A stretch of 64,000 nt of DNA from a virus. Shown piece by piece: positions 228 through 62,095 of this stretch. Both the position numbers and the translations under genes were made by a program. The stretch lies in IMG/VR virus record IMGVR_UViG_3300033067_001533; one strand, written 5' to 3'. Under the pieces are notes generated by a model, which saw only the letters and a list, made by a program, of their open reading frames with translations, searched no databases and had not been told where the DNA came from. The first letter of the stretch is position 1. The number at the start of each line of letters is the position of its first letter.

Positions 228-305
228 GTTTAATTATAGTGTAAATATAACTATTATATTTGACTGGTGAAAACTTTAAGTGTTAAATTTGTGTTAAAGT
301 TTACT
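228..305 (-). promoter_or_regulatory. conserved phage promoter element (core + TTAACA-repeat upstream module)
   Basis: ttatagtgtaaatataactattatatttgactggtgaaaactttaagtgttaaatttgtgttaaag. Confidence 0.5.
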
Positions 306-491
306 TAAATTCTTTAGGGTATAATATTTTGTACCTCCTAGTTATGCACCATTTTGCATACATTAACGGAATTCCCCAAAATGAATCTGATACTGGTTTT
401 ACAAATCTATGTCCATTATAATCTCCAGCCAATAAATAACTACCCATATGTGTAGTCGTGGTCTATTTCCCACTTAATAATTCCATCCATA

Positions 492-1412
492 TTACGCTTG
501 TTCTTTATATGTGTTAATTAATTCACCAATTTTGTTTAAAATAAATCTTTGAGAATTGTGTTCTTTTGCTTTAACATCTAAATTAAAAACAGAAGATTGC
601 AAATGCATCAATTGAGTCAATAAGTTTCCAACCGTTGCATCATTTACTTTCTTTTTAGATTGTTTTGCGATATGAAAACTAATTAGGTCTTCTAACTTCT
701 TGCGATTATCATTCATTCTGTCAATACATTTCTCGTAAGTATTGATAATTGCAAGGTTTGAAGTTTTATCAAAATCTTCCATTCCACCTACATATGAGCC
801 ATCGATTTTAACAAATCTCAAACCAGAATGTGTAGGAATATCGATTCTGCTCTTGTCAATTCCATAACTTTCACAAACTTCAAAGAATAATTCATTGTTG
901 TTTGGTGTAAATTTACAATTGGTTTCAAACACATGTTTAGCGTCCATTGAATGTAACGGTAGAATGTTTTTATAAGCACTTACAGGATATTCGATGATTT
1001 CGAATTCCAAGTTATGAACCTCTTCAACACTTTCATAAATTGCTTTATGTGTTCTAAAGAAACGTACAGCAAATATCTCATCTTCTAATGTAGCATAATC
1101 ATAATCATATTGCCCAGAATCTTCATCATATTCTCGAGTCGAATTAATCTTTTCAAGAATCTTATTGTATTCACTTAAACCAATGGTGGTCATGTCTTCT
1201 ACATTATCATAACCAATCAATTTTCGACTAGTATTTTTATATGTAATAGTTTCTGGTTTTTCAGAAATTGTAATCAGATCTGCACCATTTGAAGTACCTC
1301 TTAGGGCATCTACTAATGGTTTACCGTTAACAATAAGAGTTTTGTTATAGATAGTTTTAACGACATATAACCCTGTTTGGGAATCGTAACCTACTTTAAT
1401 TGAATTTTCCAT
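492..1412 (-). CDS. hypothetical protein (306 aa)
   Basis: Long ORF in the track; promoter motif immediately upstream (1425-1497). Confidence 0.5.
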   Translation of the reverse strand: MENSIKVGYDSQTGLYVVKTIYNKTLIVNGKPLVDALRGTSNGADLITISEKPETITYKNTSRKLIGYDNVEDMTTIGLSEYNKILEKINSTREYDEDSGQYDYDYATLEDEIFAVRFFRTHKAIYESVEEVHNLEFEIIEYPVSAYKNILPLHSMDAKHVFETNCKFTPNNNELFFEVCESYGIDKSRIDIPTHSGLRFVKIDGSYVGGMEDFDKTSNLAIINTYEKCIDRMNDNRKKLEDLISFHIAKQSKKKVNDATVGNLLTQLMHLQSSVFNLDVKAKEHNSQRFILNKIGELINTYKEQA

Positions 1413-1424
1413 GATATTTTTGTT

Positions 1425-1497
1425 TTAATTTGATATGTAAAAATAACTACAATCTTTGACTGGTGAAAACTTTAAATGTTAAAACTTTGTTAAAATT
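1425..1497 (-). promoter_or_regulatory. conserved promoter element (TTAACA-repeat module) upstream of 492..1412
   Basis: gatatgtaaaaataactacaatctttgactggtgaaaactttaaatgttaaaactttgttaaaatt. Confidence 0.5.
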
Positions 1498-1498
1498 A

Positions 1499-1732
1499 TT
1501 AATAATTTAGAATCTGTACTATTCTCGAGTTATATGCTCCAAAATATTCTACAATAACGAACTGGGTGTCTTTGTACCCTTTGTGTTTCCATCTAAGAAA
1601 ATCAACCATAATCAAGCAACTTTCATAATCTTCAAAAAGATGGGGTCTTGGGCCAGTTTTACCTCGACCTACTTTCTGCAATTGACCCGAATTGTATTGA
1701 TACAATCTAAAATCTCTTTTAATAGTTTCCAT
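1499..1732 (-). CDS. hypothetical protein
   Basis: ORF track; compact spacing with neighbours. Confidence 0.4.
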   Translation of the reverse strand: METIKRDFRLYQYNSGQLQKVGRGKTGPRPHLFEDYESCLIMVDFLRWKHKGYKDTQFVIVEYFGAYNSRIVQILNY

Positions 1733-1741
1733 TTTCAGAAA

Positions 1742-2050
1742 TTAATATGAAATCCTGTCTTTAGGAACTTCAAGCCCATTTAGTGCGTTTAATAAAACTT
1801 GCACACCATCTTCTGGATTTGGTCTATTAGGACCTGCACATCTCATTGAAAATTGTTCATCATTAATATTTGTTCTCCCGGTAGAAGTGGCAGATACAGA
1901 CTTCATAAACCATGGATTTCTACTAGGATGCATTGTTAAAATTGCATACCATTGATTGTTACTGCATTGTACAAGCGTACCTTCAACACTCGTAGTTGAC
2001 TTTAATGGTTTAGTTTTAATTACTGTAATCGCTACTTTTTCAGTTGACAT
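1742..2050 (-). CDS. hypothetical protein
   Basis: ORF track; promoter motif directly upstream (2062-2133). Confidence 0.45.
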   Translation of the reverse strand: MSTEKVAITVIKTKPLKSTTSVEGTLVQCSNNQWYAILTMHPSRNPWFMKSVSATSTGRTNINDEQFSMRCAGPNRPNPEDGVQVLLNALNGLEVPKDRISY

Positions 2051-2061: not shown

Positions 2062-2133
2062 TTAAATTATAGTGTAAATATAACTATTATATTTGAATGG
2101 TGAAAACTTTATTTTAAGAAGTTATTAACAATT
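2062..2133 (-). promoter_or_regulatory. conserved promoter element (GTTATTAACA module) upstream of 1742..2050
   Basis: ttatagtgtaaatataactattatatttgaatggtgaaaactttattttaagaagttattaacaattg. Confidence 0.5.
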
Positions 2134-4969: not shown

Positions 4970-5040
4970 TAATTATAATGTAAATATAACTACAATATTT
5001 AAACCAGTAAATTTAAAAGTGTTAAAACTTTGTTAAATTT
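4970..5040 (-). promoter_or_regulatory. conserved promoter element (TTAACA-repeat module)
   Basis: ataatgtaaatataactacaatatttaaaccagtaaatttaaaagtgttaaaactttgttaaatttt. Confidence 0.45.
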
Positions 5041-7049: not shown

Positions 7050-7120
7050 ATATTATAGTGTAAATATAACTAAAAGTTTCGACCCGTGAAAACTTTTTAC
7101 CAATTATTTGCAAAAAAGGT
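7050..7120 (-). promoter_or_regulatory. conserved promoter element upstream of 6783..7034
   Basis: attatagtgtaaatataactaaaagtttcgacccgtgaaaactttttacc. Confidence 0.45.
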
Positions 7121-7599
7121 CAAAAATATGCCTCTCCACTTGATAAATATTTAAAAATATACTAATTAATCATGGCTAAAACCTCTACCTCAGTTCTTGT
7201 AAAAGAAAAACCAAAAAAAGTACGTAAAGGCGTGCATGCAAAAACCAAGTCTTCTAAAAACAAAGGTTCTCAAAACTACAAAAAGACCTACAAGGGTCAG
7301 GGCAAATAATTTCCACTTGGGTGGCTGTTGTTGTAGGGATTTTTAAATATCTAGACAATATGATACTACAGCACATATTGAAATAGTCACTTGTTATTTC
7401 ATGCGTCATTCGATGGCTTGGATAGTCGGTTGGGTATTCATCAAAGCATTGGAGGGTTACAGTTATTATAAATAGTCTGTGGCCCTCTGATCCATTCTGA
7501 TGGAATCTGTGAGACCCGTGTCGGGCAGGTAACCAGGAGACCGGTCCCGGTAGACCCTTAAAAAATAAAATTTCCAAAAATCTCCTGAGAACTCTGACA

Positions 7600-7640
7600 A
7601 AATAAAAAAGACTCTAATTTCTTAGAGCCTTTGATTCATT
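7600..7640 (-). terminator. rho-independent terminator downstream of 7656..7949
   Basis: Minus strand: CTCTAA-gaaa-TTAGAG hairpin followed by TTTTTTATTTT. Confidence 0.4.
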
Positions 7641-7655
7641 ACATTTTAATATCTA

Positions 7656-7949: not shown

Positions 7950-8006
7950 AATTATTTGGTTTAATGATTATAAAATTATTATATTGTATTCTTTAAATTT
8001 GTTTCA

Positions 8007-13555: not shown

Positions 13556-13607
13556 GTTAACGTAATTTAGTATTTATATTAAAAGTAGAGAGTTTGTTTC
13601 ATAAAAA

Positions 13608-14754: not shown

Positions 14755-14832
14755 TGTTTTTGTTTTAAATTAGTATTATTATGATTATTATATAGGTGAA
14801 ACTTGTATTGTTTCAATTATTTTTTAGTATTT

Positions 14833-19099: not shown

Positions 19100-19172
19100 T
19101 AATTTAGTATGTAAATATAACTATAAATCATGATATATTAAACCTTTACTTTAAAAAGTTATTAACAATTTT
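19100..19172 (-). promoter_or_regulatory. conserved promoter element (GTTATTAACA module) upstream of the ligase N-fragment gene
   Basis: tagtatgtaaatataactataaatcatgatatattaaacctttactttaaaaagttattaacaatttt. Confidence 0.45.
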
Positions 19173-21593: not shown

Positions 21594-21807
21594 GCTTGTT
21601 CTGTTTTTTGTAAATGTTTTTCTTTTAACACTTTAACTAAATCTGTGTAGGTTTCTACTGCACTATTTGCATCAACACTTTTTGCCTTAATTAATTGTGA
21701 TGTTTTTACATCTCTAATCATAATAACGTCAACGTCTAATTCAATTGATAATCCTCCGATTATATTTTTCATGTTTATTTAGTTAAATTGTAAATATTAA
21801 GAAATTT

Positions 21808-22227
21808 TTATTGTTTGTCTAAATCTTTTTTAATTTGATTTAAAGATTTTTGAATGTTACTGGTAATATCCTTTTCCATTCTATTTCGCGTATCTTCCAT
21901 TTTATTGTCAAAGGCATCTAATGTTTTATTTAAGATTCTACCTCCAATTGGAATTGTATAACTATATACGTGATTAATAATTTGAATATAACTTGAACTA
22001 ATAATTACGAAAATTTCTTCACTATCTAATTTAATGTATCTCTTACCACTTAGTGGTGACATTAAAAGAACTGAACCTGGTTTTTCAATAAGTTTTTTGC
22101 AAATTAAATACGCTGCAGTTTGTTGACTATCAACCTCTCCTTTAAATGTTGAATCAAATGTTGATTTTCTCCAAATGTAAAATTTTTGTTTAAATCTCTT
22201 AATACGATGCTTTAAATTTACTTTCAT
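21808..22227 (-). CDS. hypothetical protein
   Basis: ORF track. Confidence 0.4.
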   Translation of the reverse strand: MKVNLKHRIKRFKQKFYIWRKSTFDSTFKGEVDSQQTAAYLICKKLIEKPGSVLLMSPLSGKRYIKLDSEEIFVIISSSYIQIINHVYSYTIPIGGRILNKTLDAFDNKMEDTRNRMEKDITSNIQKSLNQIKKDLDKQ

Positions 22228-23341: not shown

Positions 23342-23420
23342 TTAATTTGATATGTAAATATAACTATAATATTTGAACCATGAAAACTTTTTTACAATTA
23401 TTTTCAAAAGTTATTAACAG
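23342..23420 (-). promoter_or_regulatory. conserved promoter element (GTTATTAACAG module)
   Basis: ttgatatgtaaatataactataatatttgaaccatgaaaacttttttacaattattttcaaaagttattaacag. Confidence 0.5.
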
Positions 23421-24547: not shown

Positions 24548-24625
24548 AAGATTATAGTGTAAATATAACTAAATATTTTGATGTGTAAAAATTTAAAATG
24601 TTAAATTTATGTTAAATTATAAAAA
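24548..24625 (-). promoter_or_regulatory. conserved promoter element (TTAAA/TTAACA-repeat module)
   Basis: attatagtgtaaatataactaaatattttgatgtgtaaaaatttaaaatgttaaatttatgttaaattat. Confidence 0.45.
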
Positions 24626-25376: not shown

Positions 25377-26087
25377 TTATATAAATGTTATTTCGTTTGT
25401 TTCAGGGTTCCAATCAAATGTAACTGGTTTGTTTACATAATCATATCTTTCATTTAAAATACTTGCATTAAAGAAATGCGTGCCATTATGAAATTTATAA
25501 CCATAACTTCCATGTATATGTCCAAATACATGAATCTTTGGTGGTTGTGCATCTACCTTTTCTCTAAGCAATGCACAACCTAAATGTCCTTCATTATATG
25601 GAGGTCCGCTTACATCTAAATGGTCTTGCGGAGGTCCATGTGTAATAAGGATATCAGTATCTTCTGGAATTGCCTCCCATTTTGACATTAATCCGGGACC
25701 ACCCTTTGGTAAGTTAAACGCCCAATCATAAAACCAGGGTTGCCATGGGCTTCCATATATTTTAATCATGGTTTCATCGTTAAATTGGCCATCATCGCCT
25801 ATTTTAATCCATGAATCTTGTAAATATGTTATTAACTTATATGAGTTAACAATCGCCATTGCTCTTTCCGGAAAATCCTCAAACATATGGTCATGATTAC
25901 CTGCAATAAAAATTTTTGAATTGTAATTTTGTTCGTCAAACCACTTGCAAAAATCTTTAATATCTTCTAAATTTCTACCCGAATTCATAAGATCTCCGGC
26001 ATGGATTAATATATCTCCACCTGGTAAATCTCCGTCAAGTTCCCAATGTTTCGTATGAGTGTCAGATATTAAGGTAATTCTTTGCAT
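25377..26087 (-). CDS. calcineurin-like metallophosphoesterase
   Basis: LISDTHTKH (DxH), HAGDLMN (GD), IAGNHDH (GNHD) motifs. Confidence 0.65.
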   Translation of the reverse strand: MQRITLISDTHTKHWELDGDLPGGDILIHAGDLMNSGRNLEDIKDFCKWFDEQNYNSKIFIAGNHDHMFEDFPERAMAIVNSYKLITYLQDSWIKIGDDGQFNDETMIKIYGSPWQPWFYDWAFNLPKGGPGLMSKWEAIPEDTDILITHGPPQDHLDVSGPPYNEGHLGCALLREKVDAQPPKIHVFGHIHGSYGYKFHNGTHFFNASILNERYDYVNKPVTFDWNPETNEITFI

Positions 26088-28047: not shown

Positions 28048-28130
28048 TTTTGATATGTAAATATAATCAATTTATTTTGATTCCGAAAACATTTTTTAAT
28101 TTATTTTCAAAAAGTTATTAGCAATTACCA
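28048..28130 (-). promoter_or_regulatory. conserved promoter element (GTTATTAGCA module) upstream of NAMPT
   Basis: ttgatatgtaaatataatcaatttattttgattccgaaaacattttttaatttattttcaaaaagttattagcaatt. Confidence 0.45.
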
Positions 28131-28871: not shown

Positions 28872-28935
28872 TTTAATTATGGTGTAAATATAATTATTTC
28901 GGGTGAACCGTGAAAATTTATTTGCAATTATTTTT
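28872..28935 (-). promoter_or_regulatory. conserved promoter element
   Basis: ttatggtgtaaatataattatttcgggtgaaccgtgaaaatttatttgcaatt. Confidence 0.45.
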
Positions 28936-31014: not shown

Positions 31015-31079
31015 AATATATGTTATTGCGCAACCGTCGTTAGTTGGATGCTGGTTTATAAGTATTATATTAAATACTT

Positions 31080-31883
31080 TTATTTTGTTTCAGTTTTCCA
31101 TTTAGGGTCAAACCAAAATGTTCTACCATTTCTATCAACAACTTTACTTGAGCCTGGTCTACTGTAACAAATCATAAATTCTGACCATGAACTCATTTCT
31201 GATTCTTTACTGAATGGATTTTCCCAATCCTTTAACTGCCCACATCCTAATTTATATGCTTGCATTGGAGCCCATCTACATAGTTGATATATCTCAGGAT
31301 TACTTTGTAATGCTTCTCTTGCACTAATAAATGGATTTACATTAACCCTATATAAGATTTCAGCACGTAAATAATTGCCGATACCATTAAAGTATTTTTG
31401 ATTCATTAATGCCTCACAAATAGGTTTATCAAAATCTTTTTTATGTAGATTAGATTTGATATTTCTAACAAAGTTTTGAAACTCAAGTGTTGGATCTGGT
31501 CCTCTATTATCTGACCATTCCTCTGCAAACTTCCATTTGCCAAATCTGCGAACATCTACAAAACTTAAGGTATGGCCATCTGTACTATAAAATTTAAGAT
31601 GTGCATGTTTTGCTTCTTTGCCAGTTTCAGTGAGTTGAAAATGCCCTGACATTCCCATTGTCATTCGAATAGGTACATACATATATGGTGCAGCTTCATT
31701 TTCATAAAGATACATAACAATTTCTTTACCTTTACTTTTAGCCTTAATCTTAAATTTAGAATATGGCGCTGGAAATTCAATACCTTTATGTGTGGGATTC
31801 TTTTCTATTTTAAAGAATTCTCTACCTTCGGATGCTGCATTAATATATTCTGAAGTTAATCTTAATTCTGCTAATTCTGGCAT
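31080..31883 (-). CDS. Fpg/Nei-family DNA glycosylase/AP lyase
   Basis: N-terminal MPELAEL (canonical MPELPEV with Pro2/Glu3 catalytic residues); H2TH-like FNGIGNYLRAEILYRVNVNPF. Confidence 0.65.
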   Translation of the reverse strand: MPELAELRLTSEYINAASEGREFFKIEKNPTHKGIEFPAPYSKFKIKAKSKGKEIVMYLYENEAAPYMYVPIRMTMGMSGHFQLTETGKEAKHAHLKFYSTDGHTLSFVDVRRFGKWKFAEEWSDNRGPDPTLEFQNFVRNIKSNLHKKDFDKPICEALMNQKYFNGIGNYLRAEILYRVNVNPFISAREALQSNPEIYQLCRWAPMQAYKLGCGQLKDWENPFSKESEMSSWSEFMICYSRPGSSKVVDRNGRTFWFDPKWKTETK

Positions 31884-33249: not shown

Positions 33250-33320
33250 TTTAATTAGATATGTAAATATAACTATAATAATTGACAATAAAAAACTTTA
33301 AGCAACTATTTTTAAATATT
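33250..33320 (-). promoter_or_regulatory. conserved promoter element
   Basis: ttagatatgtaaatataactataataattgacaataaaaaactttaagcaactatttttaaatattttt. Confidence 0.4.
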
Positions 33321-33514: not shown

Positions 33515-33590
33515 TATTTGTTTTAATTAGATATGTAAATATAAACAAAAAACTCCAGACTAAAAAATCCGGAGTGTTAATATTTTGTTA
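33515..33590 (-). promoter_or_regulatory. promoter core fused to terminator-like hairpin variant (ACTCC...GGAGT)
   Basis: ttagatatgtaaatataaacaaaaaactccagactaaaaaatccggagtgttaatattttgtt. Confidence 0.4.
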
Positions 33591-33821
33591 AATTTTTTCA
33601 AGTTCAAATCTAAATTGTTCTTTGTCCTTTTTCCAAATCCTTTCTAATCTTTTCATTTCTTTAATAAAGATTGGATGATTATCAGAACTCATTTTACCAT
33701 ATCTAGTTTCAAGAGCATCAAACGCTTCACCTCTCATTGTAGTCCATTCTTTCATACAACCAGAACAAATTCTTCGATTGTCAAAGATATTCTTTTCACG
33801 ACATCTAGTACAGGTTCTCAT
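33588..33821 (-). CDS. small zinc-ribbon protein
   Basis: CTRC...CSGC. Confidence 0.4.
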   Translation of the reverse strand: MRTCTRCREKNIFDNRRICSGCMKEWTTMRGEAFDALETRYGKMSSDNHPIFIKEMKRLERIWKKDKEQFRFELEKI

Positions 33822-37469: not shown

Positions 37470-37550
37470 AATTATATGTAAATATAAACAAAAGTTTCGA
37501 TATATAAAAATATTTAACTAATTATTTTTCAAACTTATTAACAGTTATTC
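37470..37550 (-). promoter_or_regulatory. conserved promoter core (variant) + CTTATTAACAG module upstream of PRPP synthetase
   Basis: aattatatgtaaatataaacaaaagtttcgatatataaaaatatttaactaattatttttcaaacttattaacag. Confidence 0.4.
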
Positions 37551-41883: not shown

Positions 41884-41952
41884 AATTATAATGTAAATAT
41901 AACTATAATATTTGACCCGTGAAAATTTATTTACAAAAAGTTATTAACAATT
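41884..41952 (-). promoter_or_regulatory. conserved promoter element (GTTATTAACA module)
   Basis: attataatgtaaatataactataatatttgacccgtgaaaatttatttacaaaaagttattaacaatt. Confidence 0.5.
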
Positions 41953-42207: not shown

Positions 42208-42285
42208 ATTAAAGTGTAAATATAACCATTTCTGGTGACATGAAAAAATTTAATTACATTTATTTTTAAAAAGTTTCCCCGGATG
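42208..42285 (-). promoter_or_regulatory. conserved promoter element (variant)
   Basis: ttaaagtgtaaatataaccatttctggtgacatgaaaaaatttaattacatttatttttaaaaagtttcccc. Confidence 0.4.
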
Positions 42286-42519
42286 TTATTTTACCCTCAG
42301 GCTTAAAGACTTAAGTTATATTGACCTGGTAAAAATTTGTTTCAGTTATATAAATTATCTTTGTGAATAATATGTTAGAGATAGCCTAGAATTTGAAAAG
42401 TATGCAATCCCTGTATACCTCATTTTTAATATTAATACGACAGTGTTATGTTTTACAATAACATTAATGATGTCCTAGAAACACCTAAAAGAACCCATCC
42501 ATGTCTCAGTAGAAGGCAT

Positions 42520-42550: not shown

Positions 42551-42558
42551 ATTTGTAT

Positions 42559-45421: not shown

Positions 45422-45500
45422 TAATTATAGTGTAAATATAAACAAAAAAAGCCAAACAAAAAAATGTTTGGCTAATTATTTTCAAAAAGTTATTAACAGT
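45422..45500 (-). promoter_or_regulatory. promoter core + embedded terminator hairpin (GCCAAACA-A7-TGTTTGGC) + GTTATTAACAG module
   Basis: ttatagtgtaaatataaacaaaaaaagccaaacaaaaaaatgtttggctaattattttcaaaaagttattaacag. Confidence 0.5.
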
Positions 45501-47594: not shown

Positions 47595-47680
47595 AATTAT
47601 AGTGTAAATATAACTATAATATTTGAACCGTGAAAACTTTTTAACAAATATTTTACACTTTTTTTCCAAAAAGTTTCATA
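47595..47680 (-). promoter_or_regulatory. conserved promoter element upstream of LRR lipoprotein gene (overlaps C-terminus of the peptidase gene)
   Basis: ttatagtgtaaatataactataatatttgaaccgtgaaaactttttaacaaatattttacactttttttccaaaaagtttcat. Confidence 0.5.
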
Positions 47681-48976: not shown

Positions 48977-49056
48977 AATCTAATTTGGTAATAATTTATA
49001 AATATTACTTCTATTATATGTGTATGGATGTAATTGTTTCAACCTAGGACACTATA

Positions 49057-52263: not shown

Positions 52264-52389
52264 TCGTTGTTGTTTCTTTATTTAATGTTATTTATGTTAT
52301 ATATTTAATTTTTAAATATTAACAGATTTAAATAAGGGGAAATGTTTTTAAATCTTTAAATAAAGAATAAGTATTGATAATAAAAATTA

Positions 52390-52461: not shown

Positions 52462-52820
52462 ATATTGAGAGGTTTAGGTATGGCTCACCTCTCCATGACT
52501 GACATCCTACCTTTACAGTCTAATTTGTACCGACTAGTGGTAACGATCCACTCTGAAAATACTTATGAGATATTTTCGATCACCTGATCAAGTCGGCAAT
52601 TAAGTACCTTGCGTTAGATTTGTCTGTTAAGAGTCGAACTTAACATACCAAAAGACAACGTTACAAATATAAAATGGCCATTCTACAATGTATGTTGGTG
52701 CACCAATTCTCTAACGCTTTATCAGTACTTAGTGGAAAGCAGAAGTCTCGATCTCCATGCCCTAAGGCACGATTCGCTTAGCAAGCGGTCCTGAATCCTA
52801 TTCAGTTTACTTTCCAATTG

Positions 52821-53115: not shown

Positions 53116-53121
53116 CCACAG

Positions 53122-53197
53122 TACCTCCAGTGGGAGTCGAACCCACAAAATCTTCTGATCCTAAGTCAGACGGCTTTTCCAGTTTGCCCATGGAGGC
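53122..53197 (-). tRNA. tRNA with anticodon TAG (Leu-CUA reading) but short variable loop
   Basis: Acceptor GCCTCCA/TGGAGGT, anticodon stem TCTGA/TCAGA loop CTTAGGA, T arm GTGGG-TTCGACT-CCCAC; 7-nt variable region atypical for Leu. Confidence 0.4.
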
Positions 53198-53290
53198 ATA
53201 AAGCCAATCCCGTAGATTGGCCGCTCAACTTAAGGTATTGAGTTTGCAAGAATAAATCTTTGACCAGGTCATGCGTCCTATGGGCGCCGA

Positions 53291-53366
53291 CTAGTACCTC
53301 GTAGTAGAATCGAACTACTGCCATTTCCATGTAAAAGAAATACGCTTCCATTACGCCAACGAGGCT
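53291..53366 (-). tRNA. atypical tRNA-like element (canonical acceptor and T arm, no foldable D stem; anticodon loop could read TAC or TTA depending on register)
   Basis: GCCTCGT...AGTAG-TTCGATT-CTACT-ACGAGGT; internal ATTTCTTTTACATGGAAAT ambiguous. Confidence 0.3.
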
Positions 53367-53936
53367 GGTCGACTCCGATTTTTATGTGCACCATACAGAA
53401 CGTTGTCGAAGTAAACTGTGTTTGTACCCCTTGTAGGTAATGCTCCTACTTCCCGATATTAAAAGTATCGTGCTTCACTTTAAAGCCTAAGGGGCTTGCC
53501 TTTTTTAGAGTTTTTGATAGAACAATAGAACCCAAGGACAGAACTACCTATAAAACTATTTGTAATTAAGAGTGTAAAAGGAACGTTTTGCCTAAGACCG
53601 CGGATCCATACAAAACTTAACTTTACCAAAATGTTGATTTGCAACTCATCATTTTGTCAGGTTACTACATATACAGAACCTTTTACTGCTTCTAATAATT
53701 CGCAAGGACAATACAGGATTCGAACCTGTAACTCCGGATCCGTTCCGGTGTTATGTGTCCAACTACACCAATCGCCCAAACTACTTATTTTCCGCTTTTC
53801 TCTTTGTGACTGTAAGGGGACTCGAACCTTAATGATTACTCCAGCGCTACTTTCATCATTTTTAAATTAACCTAGCCTAAAAGGCACCCAGCTTACCGGT
53901 GGGCTGTGCTTCCCTGCACAAGTACAATCGTTTTAG

Positions 53937-54010
53937 TAGCGGGTGGCAGAATCGAACTACCCTTCATTCGGCTTATGAGACCGATAAGTTCACCAGAACT
54001 TTAACCCGCA
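53937..54010 (-). tRNA. tRNA-Met/Ile2 (CAT) copy 1
   Basis: Anticodon stem TCGGT/GCCGA loop CTCATAA; T arm GGTAG-TTCGATT-CTGCC. Confidence 0.55.
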
Positions 54011-54020
54011 ATATATTTTG

Positions 54021-54092
54021 TAGTCAATATAGGACTCGAACCCATACCACTAGAGTCGAAATCTAGCATTCTATCCATTAAACTAATCGACT
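54021..54092 (-). tRNA. tRNA-Arg (TCG)
   Basis: Acceptor AGTCGAT/ATTGACT, anticodon stem CTAGA/TCTAG loop TTTCGAC, T arm ATGGG-TTCGAGT-CCTAT. Confidence 0.65.
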
Positions 54093-54155
54093 AATGCATC
54101 CCGTTACTCGTGCACGAGCCATGGCATTACGGGATCGATGTTTTTCCATATTCTG

Positions 54156-54229
54156 TGGACCAGGCTGGCCTCGAACCAGCGACCTACTGATTATGAGTCA
54201 GGCGCTCTAACCAACTGAGCTACAGGTCC
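54156..54229 (-). tRNA. tRNA-Met/Ile2 (CAT) copy 2
   Basis: Canonical D arm GCTCAGTTGGTTAGAGC, anticodon loop CTCATAA, T arm GCTGG-TTCGAGG-CCAGC. Confidence 0.7.
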
Positions 54230-54430
54230 AATTAAATAATAAACCGTTCCAGACCGAACTATTAGGAACTATTAGGGCTTCTCGGACGAGGTGCACAACC
54301 CACAAAACGGCTATGATATGTTATCTGTTACTTGGCTTCTACCTCTGATTAGAATTATTATACGGGCCTCGAACCCACCTAATTAATGTATGCCTACATT
54401 AACTTTCACAGTATATCAGTTTATTATTTG

Positions 54431-54501
54431 CACAAGTAGAAGGGGTCGAACCTCCATCGTCGGTTTTGGAGACCGGTATGCTACCATTGCACCATACTTG
54501 T
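54431..54501 (-). tRNA. tRNA-Trp (CCA)
   Basis: Acceptor ACAAGTA/TACTTGT, anticodon loop CTCCAAA, T arm GGAGG-TTCGACC-CCTTC. Confidence 0.55.
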
Positions 54502-54506
54502 AATTG

Positions 54507-54587
54507 TGGGACCTGGTGGACTCGAACCACTCCCAAAAGGACGAGATTTACAGTCTCGCTGCCGTATCCGAACGACTTTCAGTTCCC
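54507..54587 (-). tRNA. tRNA-Tyr (GTA), type II
   Basis: Anticodon stem CGAGA/TCTCG loop CTGTAAA, long variable arm, T arm (A)GTGG-TTCGAGT-CCAC(C). Confidence 0.55.
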
Positions 54588-54719
54588 GATTAATTTATTC
54601 TATTCCACATGACCGGACTTTATCAGGATGTGCTTTTTACCTTACAGGATTTGAACCTGTGTCCTTTCGGCTCCCGCCGAATGTTCTTACCAACTACAAC
54701 TAAAGGTTGAATAAATTTG

Positions 54720-54791
54720 CTGGCCCGGAAGGAATCGAACCTTCATAAGATGATTAACAGTCATCCGTAATAACCCTTATACGACAGGCCA
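54720..54791 (-). tRNA. tRNA-Asn (GTT)
   Basis: Acceptor TGGCCTG/CGGGCCA, D stem CGTA/TACG, anticodon stem GATGA/TCATC loop CTGTTAA, T arm GAAGG-TTCGATT-CCTTC. Confidence 0.7.
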
Positions 54792-54949
54792 ATTTACCTC
54801 ATGTGAGGTCACTTATCATTCTATAATACTACTCATAGAAACTAGATTGAGTATCTGCTGATTAAAATGGATTCGAACCATAATCCTGAGTCCCATTTCC
54901 GCGTTAATACCACGTACTCCGTTCCTCTGTGCGCCTTTACACCATAATC

Positions 54950-55008
54950 AATCGTCAGTTTCGAACCTGACAGTTCTAAGTTAATTACTCTTAGAATTTG
55001 TTGCGATT
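54950..55008 (-). tRNA. ~59-nt armless tRNA-like element (T arm GTCAG-TTCGAAA-CTGAC plus one hairpin CTAAG-AGTAATTAA-CTTAG)
   Basis: Hand fold; no D arm and no standard acceptor partner. Confidence 0.25.
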
Positions 55009-55085
55009 AGAGGAATTGAACCTCTAGAGGGTATATCTACCGATACGGCTCATGAGACCGTCTCTGACCACTATCGCAATATAGT
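55005..55085 (-). tRNA. atypical tRNA-like element with CAT anticodon loop (ACGGT-CTCATGA-GCCGT), truncated D region and long variable region; T arm AGAGG-TTCAATT-CCTCT
   Basis: Hand fold. Confidence 0.3.
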
Positions 55086-55816
55086 GTCTTTACATGGGAT
55101 TCGAACCCATACTCTTCCGGGCTTATATGCCGGCGTTCCAAACCACGTTAAACTACGTAAAGCAATCAATTAAAATTACAGAAATTAGTGACGTCAAATC
55201 TCTTTAAGCTATGTGTAATTTTAATCGTTAGGAAGATATTGCTGATCAGGCATCTTCTTTGTAATTATGATTGGATTCGAACCAATTCCAGCTTTACAAT
55301 AAAGAGTATATTTCAACTCAACCTTTGTGAGGTGCCGCCAACAAATGGCCTCATAATCATTTGGAGCAGAGATAGGATTCGAACCTATAACCTAATCCGG
55401 TCGTGTACCGGTTGCACGTCCACTTGTGCTTCAAAGCTCATGTATTTGCGAAGTGAAGGGATTCGAACCCTTTGTCTGTGGCTCCACGACTTTAACCAGA
55501 CCACTTCAAGAGCTGCAGCTCTGTTATACTTAGTGCATTAACCTCATATGCTATTCCCTGTGGCTAGGAAATGTGAGTCTCGATCCGACATTCTCTAAGT
55601 ACCTAATTACATTCGATCCTTTAAAGAGGGACGTATTGCTAGGCAAAACTCTATTGTTGTCAGGACAGGATTCGAACCTGTAAGGATATAACACTTCTTG
55701 CTGTGTTTTCTCCGGCAGTTTCCGTCCGTGAGCAAGAGATTGAGAAGTTCACTCTCAACCAATCATATTGGACTAGACCCCCGTGTATACCAATTGCACC
55801 ACCTGACTAATTTGAT

Positions 55817-55902
55817 GTTGTGGCAGGACTCGAACCTGCATCTCTCTACGCTGGATAAATCCATCTTGAACGTTTGCGACATACCTTTTAATCCACACAA
55901 CA
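55817..55902 (-). tRNA. type-II-like tRNA candidate (isotype undetermined); T arm GCAGG-TTCGAGT-CCTGC, acceptor TGTTGTG/CACAACA
   Basis: Acceptor and T arm clear; anticodon arm not resolved by hand. Confidence 0.3.
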
Positions 55903-55907
55903 AATTG

Positions 55908-55979
55908 TAGCGCCACGGGGAATCGAACCCCGCTTTCTAGGATGAAAACCTAACGTCCTAACCGATAGACGATGGCGCC
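55908..55979 (-). tRNA. tRNA-Glu (TTC)
   Basis: Acceptor GGCGCCA/TGGCGCT, anticodon stem TTAGG/CCTAG loop TTTTCAT, T arm CGGGG-TTCGATT-CCCCG. Confidence 0.65.
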
Positions 55980-56011
55980 ATTTTATTACCAATATGTCAA
56001 ATAACGTTTGT

Positions 56012-56088
56012 TTTAATTATAGTGTAAATATAATTATAATATTTGAACCGTGAAAATTTAAAGTGTTAAAACTTTGTTAAAATTTTTG
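56012..56088 (-). promoter_or_regulatory. conserved promoter element inside tRNA cluster (part of a ~110-nt duplicated unit)
   Basis: ttatagtgtaaatataattataatatttgaaccgtgaaaatttaaagtgttaaaactttgttaaaattt. Confidence 0.5.
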
Positions 56089-56160
56089 AGCGACTAGACA
56101 GGATCGAACTGTCATTTTCAGATTGGAAGTCTGAAGTAATGGCCATTATACGATAGTCGC
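56089..56160 (-). tRNA. tRNA-Gly (TCC)
   Basis: Perfect acceptor GCGACTA/TAGTCGC, anticodon stem TCAGA/TCTGA loop CTTCCAA, T arm GACAG-TTCGATC-CTGTC. Confidence 0.75.
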
Positions 56161-56391
56161 ATTTGGGTAGGACAGAGGCCTTCTGCCTACCGAGACCTCG
56201 TCGTTGAATTGCTTCAGAGCGTACCGAGACACTTTTTAAAAAATAACAGGATGGATTAATACGTGCTCTACCAACTGAGCTACTCCGAACGTGCCACTTA
56301 AGGCGGTGTTCAAAGGCCGGATTCGAACCGACGACCACGAGGTTAACAGCCTAAGTTTTATTATTTGCGGTAACCATCCTTTATATTTTTG

Positions 56392-56464
56392 AGCCTCTTG
56401 TCGGGCTCGAACCAACGACCTGATCATTACAAATGATCTGCTCTACCAACTGAGCTAAAGAGGC
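56392..56464 (-). tRNA. tRNA-Thr (TGT)
   Basis: Acceptor GCCTCTT/AAGAGGC, D arm GCTCAGTTGGTAGAGC, anticodon stem GATCA/TGATC loop TTTGTAA, T arm GTTGG-TTCGAGC-CCGAC. Confidence 0.75.
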
Positions 56465-56524
56465 AAATTGTCGACTTTCTTGGTAGCGGCACCTTTACAC
56501 GGCCGTCGACTCTACTTGTGGTGG

Positions 56525-56600
56525 TCTGGTAGGCAGGATTCGAACCTGCGTGCTCTAGCGTCCAAGGCCAGCGAGATAAACCGGGCTCCTCTACTACCAG
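56525..56600 (-). tRNA. tRNA-Pro (TGG)
   Basis: Acceptor CTGGTAG/CTACCAG, anticodon stem CTGGC/GCTAG loop CTTGGAC, T arm GCAGG-TTCGAAT-CCTGC; enlarged D loop. Confidence 0.55.
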
Positions 56601-56654
56601 TGGTGAAGGGATTATTTTTTTATAGTAGAATTCGCCCATCTCAAAACTACTTTG

Positions 56655-56726
56655 TTACCCGACCAGGACTCGAACCTGGACGAACAGAATCAAAATCTGT
56701 GATGCTAGCCATTACATCATCGGGCA
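56655..56726 (-). tRNA. tRNA-Gln (TTG)
   Basis: D stem GATG/CATC, anticodon stem ACAGA/TCTGT loop TTTTGAT, T arm CCAGG-TTCGAGT-CCTGG. Confidence 0.7.
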
Positions 56727-56734
56727 AATTATTG

Positions 56735-56807
56735 TGGACCCTGTAGGAATCGAACCTACTCCTCTAGTTCTTCAGACTAGCGTACGCACCAGCTATACCA
56801 AAGGTCC
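56735..56807 (-). tRNA. tRNA-Phe (GAA)
   Basis: Acceptor GGACCTT/AGGGTCC, anticodon stem CTAGT/ACTAG loop CTGAAGA, T arm GTAGG-TTCGATT-CCTAC. Confidence 0.7.
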
Positions 56808-56837
56808 ATTTTTATTATCAACATGTCAAATAACGTT

Positions 56838-56918
56838 TGTTCTAAATTGTTATACAAATATAACTATAACGTTTGAACCATGAAAACTTTAAGTGTTAAA
56901 TTTATGTTAAAATTTTCT
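56838..56918 (-). promoter_or_regulatory. conserved promoter element inside tRNA cluster (second copy of the ~110-nt unit)
   Basis: ttgttatacaaatataactataacgtttgaaccatgaaaactttaagtgttaaatttatgttaaaatttt. Confidence 0.5.
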
Positions 56919-56922
56919 TTTG

Positions 56923-56993
56923 AATTCAGTATTGGAATCGAACCAATCTCTCGGAGTTTGCAATCCCGCGCCTAACCACTCGGCCAACTGAAC
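56923..56993 (-). tRNA. tRNA-Cys (GCA)
   Basis: D arm GCCGAGTGGTTAGGC, anticodon loop TTGCAAA, T arm ATTGG-TTCGATT-CCAAT. Confidence 0.5.
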
Positions 56994-57002
56994 ATTTAAA
57001 AT

Positions 57003-57040
57003 CAAAAAAGGACCAATCATTTCTGAGAGGTCCTTTTGAA
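57003..57040. terminator. bidirectional rho-independent terminator between DUF4326 gene and tRNA-Cys
   Basis: AAAAAAGGACC-[14 nt]-GGTCCTTTTGAA: hairpin flanked by A-run and T-run. Confidence 0.45.
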
Positions 57041-57296
57041 TATTATATATGTTAATAGTGCTTAGCTCATACTAACATTTCTTTTTTCAAAAAGACCAAA
57101 CCCCTGTTCCCAATTATAAAAGGGACATATCGTGCCAACCATCCCTAGGGTCGGTTGATTAAAATTAATATGTTTTTGAGTTGTTTGCATTTTTATTATT
57201 TTATTCTTTATAAACAAGAGTATTAATGTTCTTGTGTATATTATATATGTATATATCTTTATGTTTCAGCAAATTTGCACTTTTTTTAAATTATTT

Positions 57297-57590
57297 TTAA
57301 AAAAGTTCATTACCATGTGTCTTTAATAACTTTATGATAATATCGCCATGACATGGACCGGGCTTGCACCAACATCCGAGCGTCTTACCCTTTAGCTCAT
57401 GTAAACTTTCCATCAGTTTACTATTTGCCAATAAATATTTTTCGTATGCTTCAATTGCCTCCTTTACAGTGTTTACTTTAAATTGGGCAAGCGTGCCAGG
57501 TTTATGTGAATATGGATTGCCCCACTTTGATGGTCTGCCGATATACGCATCATAAGGTTCTTTATTTACATGTACAACCTTCATATACAT
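57297..57590 (-). CDS. DUF4326-like protein
   Basis: VHVNKEPYDAYIGRPSKWGNPY...LGCWCKPGPCHGDII matches the GNPF...CWCxPxxCHGD pattern of that family. Confidence 0.45.
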   Translation of the reverse strand: MYMKVVHVNKEPYDAYIGRPSKWGNPYSHKPGTLAQFKVNTVKEAIEAYEKYLLANSKLMESLHELKGKTLGCWCKPGPCHGDIIIKLLKTHGNELF

Positions 57591-57601
57591 TTTTTAATTA
57601 G

Positions 57602-57675
57602 TGACTCGGGAAGGATTCAAACCTTCGACCTACACATTAGAAGTGTGTTGCTCTATTCAGCTGAGCTACCGAGCC
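57602..57675 (-). tRNA. tRNA-Arg (TCT)
   Basis: Acceptor GGCTCGG/CCGAGTC, D arm GCTCAGCTGAATAGAGC, anticodon stem ACACA/TGTGT loop CTTCTAA, T arm GAAGG-TTTGAAT-CCTTC. Confidence 0.7.
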
Positions 57676-57684
57676 TGTTGTTAA

Positions 57685-58038
57685 TTATATATTAACTTCT
57701 ATTTTTGTTTCAAGAGATTTAATGTGTTTGCAATGTCCTCTTCTAAATGAAGATGCTGGACAATTACAATTCCATTGGCCTCTCTTATATGTAACTAAAT
57801 ATTCTGACTTTCCGTTTGATGAAGGTACCCTAAATTCAAGTTCCTTTTGAGATGTTTTAGGTGTCTCTGTGGATACTATCTCGGATTCAATTATTATATC
57901 ATCCGAAAATTCTATATCCTCTCGGGTTGTTCCCTCATCCACATGGATCCATCCTGGACAGACATATAAACCAGTAAGAGTTCTTACTAATGCAAAGTCC
58001 TTGAATACACTATCTCTGGGTATTTTATATTTAGTCAT
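57685..58038 (-). CDS. SWIM-type zinc-finger protein
   Basis: C-terminal CNCPASSFRRGHCKHI (CxCx(n)CxH). Confidence 0.45.
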   Translation of the reverse strand: MTKYKIPRDSVFKDFALVRTLTGLYVCPGWIHVDEGTTREDIEFSDDIIIESEIVSTETPKTSQKELEFRVPSSNGKSEYLVTYKRGQWNCNCPASSFRRGHCKHIKSLETKIEVNI

Positions 58039-58414: not shown

Positions 58415-58490
58415 TTAATAATAGTACAAATATAAACAAAAAAAGCCAAACAAAAAAATGTTTGGCCTTTTATTTTTGAAAATAAAATAA
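58415..58490 (-). promoter_or_regulatory. promoter core (GTACAAATATAA variant) + embedded terminator hairpin GCCAAACA-A7-TGTTTGGC
   Basis: aatagtacaaatataaacaaaaaaagccaaacaaaaaaatgtttggccttttatttttgaaaat. Confidence 0.45.
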
Positions 58491-58703: not shown

Positions 58704-58773
58704 TTTGTTATTTTTTAAGTTTATTTGTTTAACTATAATTATATTGTGTAATTAAGGTTTGTTTCAATTATTT

Positions 58774-60537: not shown

Positions 60538-60552
60538 ATATCTTATTTATAT

Positions 60553-61095
60553 TTATACACCTCTAAATTCAGCAAAAGGCTTTATATCGCTTCTTCCCGA
60601 TTCAGTGTATATTTTGTATGCCTTTCTTTTATCAGAGGATGTTAATGAATCATATAATGATGTGATTTGTTTTTCATGGGCTAATCCAGAATTGTAAGAC
60701 CTTGAATCATCTGCAAAATGATAGGTACTATCAAATCCTTTAAAGTTTAATGTCCATCTTTCAAGAGGTGAAATTGCAGTTTCCATGAAATATGTCTTTA
60801 TTTCATTTTCTGACTTCTTTTTCTTGTTTAAGTACCACTCCCAATTTCCAAGAAATCTACCAATTTTAAATGCATGTAAAGTGTCTCCTGTTGAAGTTTT
60901 TATTTCAAACTTAATTCCTTTTTTATCATCTGAAACATCATCAATGGATGAAATCCATTTATTGTCAAACGTTGGCATTAAATGTTTTACTTTTAGATTA
61001 AGATCTTTTTCAAGTTCCATTGGCATTTGCTCAGCAGTTTTACCATAATCATTATATGTCTGATATGCCTCAAATGTCATTATTATTTTACTCAT
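60553..61095 (-). CDS. hypothetical protein
   Basis: ORF track. Confidence 0.4.
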   Translation of the reverse strand: MSKIIMTFEAYQTYNDYGKTAEQMPMELEKDLNLKVKHLMPTFDNKWISSIDDVSDDKKGIKFEIKTSTGDTLHAFKIGRFLGNWEWYLNKKKKSENEIKTYFMETAISPLERWTLNFKGFDSTYHFADDSRSYNSGLAHEKQITSLYDSLTSSDKRKAYKIYTESGRSDIKPFAEFRGV

Positions 61096-61129
61096 AATCC
61101 TATGTATTATTTAGTATATTTATCTTTGT

Positions 61130-61200
61130 TTTATAGTACAAATATAATAAAAAATCCCGAGATAAAAAAATCTCAGGATTAAATTTATTGACAACTTAAA
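61130..61200 (-). promoter_or_regulatory. promoter core (GTACAAATATAA variant) + embedded hairpin (CCCGAGAT-A7-ATCTCAGG)
   Basis: tatagtacaaatataataaaaaatcccgagataaaaaaatctcaggattaaatttattgac. Confidence 0.4.
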
Positions 61201-61408
61201 TTGTCGTATGGTTTTTTATTTTATGCTGTTTCTTATAGTCTTCTATAAATCTTTCACCAATTCCAATTTCTTCAATGATGTACTCATTTGCAATCAATGG
61301 TTTTCTTGCATTTCCATTAATAATTCTATCTGGATTTTGTTCATTTTCAAATACTGTCATGTACTTTGTTTTTGAACGCTCTGATTTTCTATATACAACC
61401 ACTATCAC
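61196..61408 (-). CDS. hypothetical protein
   Basis: ORF track. Confidence 0.35.
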   Translation of the reverse strand: MIVVVYRKSERSKTKYMTVFENEQNPDRIINGNARKPLIANEYIIEEIGIGERFIEDYKKQHKIKNHTTI

Positions 61409-62004
61409 TATACGAAAGATTCTTCAATTATTGCTTTACCTCTACGAATTCTATTTTTAATGGTTTGAAGTGGAAGGTTATGTTTTTCAGCAATATCCTC
61501 ATATTTCATATCGTTAATCAATCGGTCAACCACGATACCCTTATACATTTCCTTAAGAGAATCGATTGCCTTAAGAGCATTGCCATATTTTTCCATTAAT
61601 TCATCTTCTTCTTCAAGAAAATCTTGTTCAGTTTTCATTTCATAATCTTCGAATGCACCTTGTAGTCCATTTGAGAATTCGCCAGTTTCATTAATTTCAA
61701 CTCCAAATTCAATTAAAGTATCTAATGATGTTTTTTTGTTTCTAGCACTAATATGGCCAAGAGCGTCGTTAAATGCTATTCTATATAACCACGTTGTAAT
61801 TTGATATTGTGGGTCATATTGATCGATTTTAGTCCATAATTTTGTTAAGGTATTAGTGGCAATATCTTCTGCCATTTCCCTGTCTTTAACTATTTTGTTA
61901 ACATATGTCGTAAGACCTGGTTTAACTTTGTAAAATAATGCTGTAAAATCTGCGTCTGAACGCGTTTGTAAAAAGTTTTCTGTTAGCTCGCGGTAACTTG
62001 CCAT
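61408..62004 (-). CDS. sigma-70-family (ECF-like, regions 2 and 4) RNA polymerase sigma factor; start moved to internal MASYREL
   Basis: Region-2-like YQITTWLYRIAFNDALGHI and region-4 HTH YEDIAEKHNLPLQTIKNRIRRGKAII; promoter motif lies inside the track's N-terminal extension. Confidence 0.65.
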   Translation of the reverse strand: MASYRELTENFLQTRSDADFTALFYKVKPGLTTYVNKIVKDREMAEDIATNTLTKLWTKIDQYDPQYQITTWLYRIAFNDALGHISARNKKTSLDTLIEFGVEINETGEFSNGLQGAFEDYEMKTEQDFLEEEDELMEKYGNALKAIDSLKEMYKGIVVDRLINDMKYEDIAEKHNLPLQTIKNRIRRGKAIIEESFV

Positions 62005-62024
62005 AAATTTGTGTTTTTTGTGAG

Positions 62025-62095
62025 GATTAATTATAATACAAATATAACTAATATTTTTGGTAAATAAAAATATTTTGCAAAAAATATTAGTGTTG
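62025..62095 (-). promoter_or_regulatory. conserved promoter core (ATACAAATATAA variant) upstream of the sigma-factor gene
   Basis: aattataatacaaatataactaatatttttggtaaataaaaatattttgcaaaaaatattagtgttg. Confidence 0.4.

Follow-up and report, generated by a model that had tools for sequence, protein, structure and literature searches.

A 64 kb stretch of viral DNA from IMG/VR virus record IMGVR_UViG_3300033067_001533, here called the window, carries 22 copies of a repeated intergenic element, which we term class 1. Judged from its sequence and placement, class 1 probably represents strong early promoters, arranged as cassettes, that a large virulent phage presents to unmodified host RNA polymerase carrying its primary sigma factor. 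The original prediction had described a phage-specific promoter family with a core of about 45 nt and proposed a sigma factor encoded in the same window as its reader. In essentials the repeated element proved real, but the extent of its core, its distance to the start codon and the scheme of its upstream modules had to be corrected, and the assignment of class 1 to the phage sigma factor is probably wrong.

The number and placement of the copies were examined with a 52-nt matrix built from the copies themselves. The matrix identified 22 sites on the minus strand, matching the predicted minimum of 22 copies; neither the plus strand nor any of 50 composition-preserving block shuffles yielded one. 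For the best-conserved 11-mer, TTATATTTRYA, 1.29 occurrences would be expected, and 22 were counted on the minus strand with a single one on the plus strand. All credible open reading frames (ORFs) of the window, which has a GC content of ~32%, and all 24 tRNA genes called by ARAGORN also lie on the minus strand. Every class-1 copy is intergenic, in a window of which 13% is intergenic DNA. Of the 19 tabulated copies that stand before an ORF, 14 have their predicted start site 20-22 nt ahead of the ATG (range 14-39). The copy at 237, with a gene that continues beyond the window, has a similar distance of ~20 nt. Measured from the end of the core, the gap to the ATG is ~21-23 nt rather than the 10-20 nt first claimed. 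As predicted, two copies stand upstream of tRNA operons, with tRNA-Glu following 41 nt after the predicted start at 56020 and tRNA-Phe 43 nt after that at 56850. The expected core is present exactly, as a 39-nt sequence at 47602-47640, but it is not conserved in full throughout: 13 copies match it with at most 10 mismatches and 8 with at most 6, all in one orientation. Overall, copy number, strand bias and gene-proximal position establish the element as real and far beyond chance.

To define the anatomy of the element, the copies were aligned on the start predicted by the Bacteroidota rule, 4-5 nt past the -7 element. Positions T-13 to T-6 (TTATATTT) and A-3 are invariant in this alignment and form an extended -7 element, TTATATTT(A/G)(C/T)A, at -13 to -3, in which 18 copies have AC and 5 have GT at -5/-4. 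A TTTT tract, often TTTTC, occupies -36 to -33 in 20-23 of 23 copies and is separated from the -7 element by a 20-nt spacer. T-26 C-25 A-24, T-19 and T-16 are also strongly conserved, and the full spacer CAYGGKTCAAATATTATAG is found in only ~12-13 copies. Downstream, a leader of ~21 nt (ATAATTAAAACAAA or TCAAATTAAAACAAA) extends to the ATG; it is A-rich, includes TAAAA and has no Shine-Dalgarno site. A sigma-70-type reading, with TTCAAA and a downstream TATAAT as promoter boxes, was rejected because the two lie 20 nt apart and TATAAT is missing from the CATATCAAATT variant.

The layout instead follows the promoter grammar of one bacterial phylum. Sigma-A promoters of Bacteroidota combine a -33 TTTG with a -7 TAnnTTTG (-12 to -5) that lies 19-21 nt downstream of it, transcription starting 4-5 nt further on (PMC6847099, PMC9723704, PMC2483708); in F. 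johnsoniae the -33 motif is reported to be weak and the G at -5 to be nearly invariant (PMC6847099). Comparison with this TTTG...TAnnTTTG consensus, already suggested in the original prediction, proved the key test, and the class-1 boxes and their spacing fit. TA at -12/-11 together with TTT at -8 to -6 is present in 23/23 copies, and five copies have an exact TAnnTTTG; the -33 element reads TTTT or TTTC, the final G of TTTG being missing. Strand specificity, intergenic position, a fixed distance to start codons and tRNA genes, conservation at orthologous sites and the -33/-7 match all support the designation of class 1 as a promoter family. Translation signals provide an independent indication of the host phylum. 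Among 118 ORFs, a Shine-Dalgarno-like 4-mer precedes only 6, G is depleted upstream of start codons, and A is found at -3 of the start codon in 79% and at -11 to -13 in 64-69%, which is the signature described for F. johnsoniae. TAAAA, as found in the leader, is the reported Flavobacterium ribosome-binding consensus (PMC2483708). The host probably belongs to the Bacteroidota, and within them to the Flavobacteriales.

The same design recurs in a cultured phage that is otherwise unrelated to the window. BLAST with the consensus cassette returned matches at several intergenic places in Chryseobacterium indologenes phages MA9V-1 and MA9V-2, and the window-derived matrix, run over essentially the whole 218-kb genome of MA9V-2 (OR513085.1), found 33 sites, every one of them on the coding strand; shuffled sequence gave none. 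Each site lies shortly before an ATG and has the spacer TTTTCAYATGTCRAAA as in the window, with boxes that read TTAWATTT followed by ACA, GTA or ATA and the same mix of G and A at -5. Versions with the AAAATAGTTGC AT box, with TTTAACA repeats and with an embedded hairpin are all represented, and TGTTAATAAC stands upstream of the phage's own sigma-like gene. The genes that follow include both topoisomerase subunits, a DEAD-box helicase, DNA ligase and many small ORFs, and no gene annotated as capsid, tail, neck or terminase has one of the 33 sites in front of it. Searched by tblastn, none of the 118 predicted proteins of the window, sigma factor included, matched MA9V-2 at E <= 1e-3. A detailed design held in common by phages with no detectable protein in common suggests that it is either set by shared host machinery or exchanged as a cassette. 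Since MA9V-2 has 33 sites and no homologue of the window's sigma factor, the design is independent of that factor and host RNA polymerase is its likely reader.

Further features of MA9V-2 were recorded alongside these sites. Its virion and late-type genes are preceded by TATAAATA-like sequences (GTTATAAATAA, ATATAAATAAC; positions 41152, 52092, 64850, 157215 and 170818), which by their sequence are reminiscent of T4 late promoters. A 135-aa protein, MA9V2_198, has sigma region 2 only. The searchable literature on the motif, on promoters of Flavobacteriia phages and on the MA9V phages gave no earlier description of the element, and the word promoter is absent from the MA9V-1 paper (PMC10537231).

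The sigma factor named in the original prediction is indeed encoded in the window, at 61408..62004 on the minus strand. Its gene specifies 198 aa, with a start (ATGGCAAGTTAC) that is kept in 10 relatives, and the protein is of the extracytoplasmic function (ECF) type, scoring 61.8 bits against a TIGR02937 cut-off of 42.9. The best-matching models are a Bacteroidota ECF subfamily, SigW and RpoE, and the best solved structure is SigW. The ATG of this gene (62004) is itself preceded by a class-1 promoter (62034..62074, minus strand; predicted start 62034, -7 box TATATTTG), not only in the window but also in 10 relatives and in L059 and L163, 12 related contigs in all. At this orthologous promoter the window has TTTGTA and the relatives TTTACA, and the interchange places both variants in one class. 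Spacers and upstream modules of the sigma promoter vary among the relatives, and synteny breaks just upstream of it. A sigma gene that is driven by the class-1 element is an unlikely source of the factor that reads class 1.

A second motif, class 2, is a more suitable candidate target for the sigma factor. TGAAAC is the -35 box of SigW-type ECF promoters, exemplified by TGAAAC ... CGTA for SigW of B. subtilis (PMC5758882). In the window TGAAAC-N16-ATATAA has 10 coding-strand copies against 0.28 expected, with identical spacing in 9 of 10, and is often found in intergenic regions that have no class-1 element. In relatives, orthologous sites keep the two boxes with a diverged spacer between them. 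All ten copies are on the minus strand. Those at 58739..58766 and 49014..49041 are followed by an ATG 35 and 37 nt downstream, respectively; that at 57685..57712 ends 9 nt before tRNA-Arg and is kept, with a diverged spacer, in 5 relatives. The copy at 31065..31092 precedes a Thg1-like gene and is kept in L025, that at 25377..25404 is kept in L031, and that at 13574..13601 directly follows a terminator hairpin and is kept in L027. Three more with the standard arrangement lie at 57241..57268, 14788..14815 and 7979..8006, and the one copy with a 17-nt spacer (42316..42344) lies upstream of the class-1 promoter at 42212. The motif can also be read as TTGAAA-N18-TATAAT.

Beyond the window, a scan of viral contigs with the class-2 pattern yielded mostly single chance matches, together with six loci that encode sigma homologues of 34-80% identity. 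In the most distant of these loci, L123, the sigma ATG follows a class-2 site by ~40 nt, an arrangement known from autoregulated ECF sigma factors. The huge phage LR756500, which has the closest GenBank homologue of the sigma factor (34% identity, 22% GC), was uninformative, neither class being enriched in 40 kb round the gene. MA9V-2 lacks the class-2 motif. Taken together, these circumstantial sequence associations make class 2 probably the better candidate target of the phage sigma factor. Several low-GC viral contigs, L074 (IMGVR_UViG_3300007722_000420), L081/L083/L085, L097 and L127, have several class-2 sites just before ORF starts, six of them within 9.7 kb in L074, and also TTATATTTACA boxes with TTAACA or hairpin upstream parts. 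The presence of both motif types in these contigs suggests that the two-class system is widespread in a broader group of uncultivated phages.

Upstream of class 1, two recurrent modules were found much as predicted. Module 1, first noticed as a TTTAACA direct repeat, is TTAACA-N5-TTAACA and has seven coding-strand copies against 0.31 expected, all beside the element, with the repeats at -60 and -49 (11 bp apart) in 7/7. It accompanies the minus-strand promoters at 237..297 (ATG near 217, the gene leaving the window), 1433..1493 (-7 box TATTTTTA; ATG 1412), 4976..5036 (ATG 4955), 24555..24615 (ATG 24535) and 33531..33591 (ATG 33510), and those of the two tRNA operons at 56020..56080 (tRNA-Glu/Leu, 41-nt leader) and 56850..56910 (tRNA-Phe, 43-nt leader; repeats at -60/-49). 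Both tRNA-operon promoters have a common ~30-nt leader, ACAAACGTTATTTGACATRTTGRTAATAAAA (55980-56020 and 56808-56850, minus strand), which may reflect duplication or a processing signal.

Module 2, TGTTAATAAS, is present as six exact copies and one variant beside the element, at -60 or -69/-70; it includes the palindrome GTTA-A-TAAC, and after it comes an AT-rich box, for example TTTTTGAAAATAATTG. Its promoters, again on the minus strand, are 2070..2130 (ATG 2050), 19107..19167 (ATG 19092, a Hint/intein-like protein), 23350..23419 (ATG 23329), 28053..28123 (variant TGCTAATAAC; ATG 28031, nicotinamide phosphoribosyltransferase), 37474..37543 (TGTTAATAAG at -69; ATG 37453, a phosphoribosyltransferase-domain protein), 41889..41949 (module at -60; ATG 41868) and 45428..45498 (TGTTAATAAC at 45489-45498; ATG 45408). 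Because TGTTAA is the reverse complement of TTAACA, the two modules have a common half-site. Neither occurs away from class-1 promoters on the coding strand of the window. About seven copies have an AT-rich box alone, or nothing recognisable, upstream. The minus-strand promoter at 7056..7116 has the AT-rich box TTTTTGCAAATAATTGG alone (ATG 7034). Besides the sigma promoter, the remaining hairpin-free copies listed on that strand are 28880..28920 (ATG 28859), 33259..33299 (ATG 33238), 42212..42252 (spacer variant TCATGTCACCAGAAATGG; ATG 42187) and 47600..47640, which has the exact 39-nt core and precedes a leucine-rich-repeat protein (ATG 47576). Two possible further copies on the minus strand fell below the matrix threshold: a doubtful one in the tRNA region (52662; 52659..52699), with the TATATTTG box only and no -33 T-tract, and a weak one at 21786..21826 (TAATATTTACA), with an ATG 14 nt downstream.

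In sequence and placement the modules resemble UP-like elements, being A/T-rich and held in fixed helical phase between -40 and -70 (TTAACA at -60/-49; TGTTAATAAC at -60 or -69/-70), and an 11-bp periodic array is seen in relatives L013, L015, L033 and L040. Since modules are swapped between orthologous promoters and also occur in an unrelated phage, their distribution points to contact with a host factor or with the alpha subunit of RNA polymerase rather than with a phage-specific regulator. A role as class-specific regulator sites, as the original prediction had it, is possible.

Terminator-like hairpins are embedded in four class-1 copies (33531, 45428, 58422 and 61134), with folding energies of -13.2 to -16.1 kcal/mol and z scores of -4.2 to -5.3. 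The three first noted, at 45.4, 58.4 and 61.1 kb, do fold stably, and a fourth, CTCCGGA...TCTGGAG, was missed at 33.5 kb. On the minus strand, two of the hairpin copies are 61134..61180 (stem 61153-61180; -7 box TATATTTG; ATG 61095) and 58422..58471 (GGCCAAACA-T7-TGTTTGGCC, 58440-58471; ATG 58396). The hairpin spans -45 to -14, its T-rich loop forming the -33 T-tract and its T-tail filling the spacer. It thus takes the place of the -33 and spacer part of the core, as had been suggested for the A/T spacer, but it does not replace the distal module: the copy at 33531 has module 1 as well, and the one at 45428, with its hairpin at 45450-45473, also has module 2. The idea that each copy has one of three alternative upstream modules therefore does not hold, as the hairpin is not distal and some copies have no module at all. 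With the loop as -33 T-tract and the U-tail as spacer, a single 45-nt unit would both terminate the upstream transcript and initiate the next.

These features can be combined into a model in which host polymerase and its primary sigma factor would recognise the -7 element, TTTT(C) at -36 to -33 standing in for the Bacteroidota -33 element. Further upstream, at about -70 to -44, an optional distal module, either phased TTAACA repeats or TGTTAATAAC followed by AT-rich TTTTTGAAAATAATTG, would complete the cassette. Expression of the ECF sigma gene, of the two tRNA operons, of the genes for NAD salvage and tRNA maturation and of small genes of unknown function would depend on such cassettes. Once made, the sigma factor would probably read TGAAAC-N16-ATATAA as a middle-phase switch.

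Several observations weigh against this model. The start sites and the timing of class 1 are predictions from the DNA. Position -5 is A in 18/23 copies and G in 5/23, where the host consensus has G, and the -33 element is TTTT or TTTC instead of TTTG. The matrix gave no match of at least 8 bits in 80 kb of Flavobacteriales genomic loci, a small sample that is not proof of absence. The pattern AAAATAGTTGC-N7-TTTTCA gave at least 120 mostly random genome matches, and none of those listed has a -7 box at the right distance. A 24-mer of the core is absent from 185,579 bacterial genomes, with no prophage or host copy. The extended design was thus not found in host-type DNA, and the conserved spacer and the modules are unexplained by the known host consensus. 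Moreover, the window is part of a genome, so that a phage factor may possibly be encoded elsewhere, and MA9V-2 has its own sigma-like proteins, which have no homologue in the window or in the examined related loci.

The same observations sustain the strongest alternative, that host polymerase needs another phage factor. Such a factor might be a protein that is injected or made very early, a modification of the polymerase, or a sigma-A-like protein with its gene beyond the window; its target would be the conserved spacer (TTTTCA..GTCAAA), the upstream modules or the TTTACA variant. Conservation well beyond the needs of the host consensus, an A at -5 in most copies where host G is near-invariant, and a design that is absent from the sampled host DNA all agree with such a factor. 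T4 sets a precedent, its early promoters being favoured after the injected Alt protein has ADP-ribosylated the polymerase alpha subunit. Against it, the detailed design is common to MA9V-2, where none of the 118 window proteins has a homologue, and the sigma-like proteins of MA9V-2 have none in the window or in the examined relatives. Furthermore, five copies have perfect host-consensus boxes, which interchange with the A variant at orthologous sites. We consider an additional factor unlikely overall, although the unexplained spacer and modules leave room for an outside phage factor or a polymerase modification.

The reading of the original prediction, in which class 1 is phage-specific and transcribed by host core polymerase with the phage sigma factor at 61408-62004, appears very unlikely. 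The sigma gene is present in the window, and the departure from host consensus at -5, the extended conserved spacer and the failure to find the extended design in host-type genomic DNA count in its favour. However, in every examined relative that has the element the sigma gene is itself class-1-driven, and MA9V-2 maintains 33 copies of the same architecture with no homologue of this sigma factor. The -35 boxes of ECF promoters contain AAC (GAAC or TGAAAC), with a short -10 box ~16 nt on, and class 1 has TTTT at -36 to -33 and no AAC at -35 on the coding strand. The TGAAAC box of class 2, which co-occurs with sigma homologues, suits an ECF factor much better.

We give even less credence to the proposal that the elements are primarily recombination or mobility cassettes, which shuffle genes by homologous exchange and have promoter activity as a secondary property. 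Orthologous promoters do differ in spacers and modules, synteny breaks upstream of the sigma promoter, and near-identical cassettes occur in a phage that has no protein in common with the window; the PeSLs of T4-type phages discussed below set a precedent for the proposal. When recombination junctions were examined directly, BLAST segment ends were 3.2x enriched in promoter spans relative to random positions but only 1.4x relative to other intergenic DNA, a weak effect, and several indels that distinguish the window from its relatives end elsewhere than at promoters. Strict strandedness and constant spacing to start codons are typical of promoters, and mobility is in any case compatible with a host-read promoter and no true alternative to it. 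Finally, action as RNA (a processing site, translational enhancer or structured 5' element) is the least credible proposal: the conserved block does extend through the leader (ATAATTAAAACAAA) as far as the start codon, but the hairpin-free core folds no better than shuffles (z -0.67 and -1.01), Rfam 15 covariance models at gathering score matched only tRNAs in the window and not the element, the most conserved bases lie upstream of where the transcript would begin, and the leader features are ordinary Bacteroidota translation-initiation signals.

The gene content of the window identifies it as an auxiliary or early-type region as in large virulent phages. It encodes nicotinamide phosphoribosyltransferase (NAMPT, 26565-28031), a phosphoribosyltransferase-domain protein resembling phosphoribosyl pyrophosphate synthetase (36575-37453), a Thg1-like tRNA-His guanylyltransferase (29962-31014) and a CCA/poly(A)-polymerase-type nucleotidyltransferase head domain (44348-45082), so that NAD-salvage and tRNA-maturation genes accompany the large tRNA set. 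Other recognisable genes encode an M42 peptidase, an ATP-grasp protein, a homing endonuclease, a Hint-domain protein and the sigma factor; most small ORFs have no family match. At 17230-19092 a homing-endonuclease-like ORF (DUF7487/Vsr-like) adjoins an ORF with a Hint/intein splicing domain, and the pair may represent a mobile intein or endonuclease insertion. A megablast search with 24 kb against 50,697 phage records found no close cultured relative, and protein searches with a 1068-aa protein and the Thg1-like protein gave only distant, uninformative matches.

The 24 called tRNA genes are probably not the full set, which also seems to be partly non-canonical. Relaxed ARAGORN settings added tRNA-Lys(ttt) at ~53424-53495 and tRNA-Leu(gag), with a 62-nt intron, at ~55656-55808, and Rfam gave additional weak tRNA matches at 53705-53777 and 53939-54009. 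The tRNA-Tyr call at 55086-55163 has an odd ATA anticodon, and ~10 T-arm-like GGTTCGAATCC motifs lie outside called tRNAs on the minus strand, at 52000-58000 and 14194-14577. Two unusually long non-coding stretches (246-371 nt), within 7254-7655 and 42188-42558 (minus strand), have no Rfam match; the first includes a GC-rich, possibly structured segment (GGGTCTACCGGGACCGGTCTCC...), and the second holds a terminator, a class-2 site and a class-1 promoter in series. In regions that have neither motif class (52264-52389, 46598-46673, 18232-18282 and 32313-32416, minus strand), ATATATAAC/GATATATAG/TTATATAAAAAAC-like sequences occur 20-40 nt before the ATG, for example upstream of the 1068-aa tail-fibre-like gene. 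From their sequence and position, these may form a third, perhaps late, promoter class.

A more speculative extension of the host-read model, to which we attach only tentative weight, is that the cassette is a portable 'super-promoter' exchanged among unrelated Flavobacteriales phages, whose modules and spacer would be sites for parts of the host polymerase, such as the alpha subunit or a sigma region, or for a DNA-binding protein. For Bacteroidota, sites of this kind are so far undescribed. If correct, the cassettes would provide the first UP-element-like or extended promoter determinants for this phylum and an instance of PeSL-like cassette mobility outside the T4 group. Promoter recognition in Bacteroidota is unlike that of textbook sigma-70 and is known mainly as a short consensus, and genetic tools for Flavobacteriia and their relatives are limited because strong, defined promoters are lacking. 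The 22 natural variants of the window, together with dozens in its relatives and in MA9V-2, amount to a natural mutagenesis series that displays tolerated changes, including G or A at -5 and terminators within the spacer. They also outline a testable two-step programme for an uncultivated large phage, in which host sigma-A would read class 1 and the resulting ECF sigma factor would read TGAAAC-N16-ATATAA. As this is the expected strategy of a large virulent phage, the findings are useful for promoter biology and tool building and not conceptually surprising.

Comparison with known systems places the two classes in different company. Class 2 alone is similar to SigW promoters: its -35 box is TGAAAC, its spacer is fixed at 16 nt, and one site lies directly upstream of a homologous sigma gene, although its -10 region, ATATAA, lacks CGT; the 45-nt class-1 element has none of these features. 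Class 1 instead resembles the sigma-ABfr promoters of Bacteroidota in its TA at -12/-11, TTT at -8 to -6, T-rich element ~20 nt upstream and AT-rich sequence around -18, and in being leadered, with no Shine-Dalgarno site and with A at -3 and -12/-13 of the start codon. It differs from them in having A for G at -5 in 18/23 copies, TTTT or TTTC for TTTG at -33, extra invariant bases (T-13, T-10, A-9, A-3 and T-26 C-25 A-24) and upstream modules that were not found in sampled host genomic DNA.

Early promoters of T4 have an extended consensus and upstream A/T-rich, UP-like elements, and the middle class of that phage uses appropriation of sigma-70 by MotA/AsiA. By analogy, class-1 promoters would likewise be more conserved and stronger than those of the host and would stand at the top of a temporal cascade. 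T4 has three promoter classes (PMC6024815). Class 1 is similarly interspersed with a second class in the same region, tRNA genes included; here, however, the host phylum and consensus are different, and the candidate for reading the second class is a phage ECF-type sigma factor.

Among described systems the closest analogue, in overall organisation, is the promoter-early stem-loop (PeSL) of T4-type phages. PeSLs are repeated cassettes, ~50 per genome, that consist of a strong host-type early promoter with an AT-rich upstream region; a terminator stem-loop may separate or overlap the promoter boxes, they sit before genes of unknown function in variable regions, and they have been implicated in modular shuffling (PMC2839356, PMC4122927). 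The class-1 cassettes depart from this scheme in several respects. They follow the Bacteroidota -33/-7 grammar and not the sigma-70 -35/-10 boxes, no Shine-Dalgarno site follows, the stem-loop is present in only 4/22 copies, and upstream modules are defined (phased TTAACA repeats; TGTTAATAAC). A role at recombination junctions, with indels, replacements and mini-circles as suggested for PeSLs, finds weak enrichment of segment ends here, together with modules that were swapped at the orthologous sigma promoter. Nonetheless, both systems consist of repeated intergenic host-type promoters with an AT-rich upstream region, placed directly before small genes of unknown function in variable regions, and most genes downstream of class-1 sites have no Pfam match. 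The four hairpin copies, moreover, recall the placement of the stem-loop in PeSLs, and in both systems the cassettes vary between close relatives.

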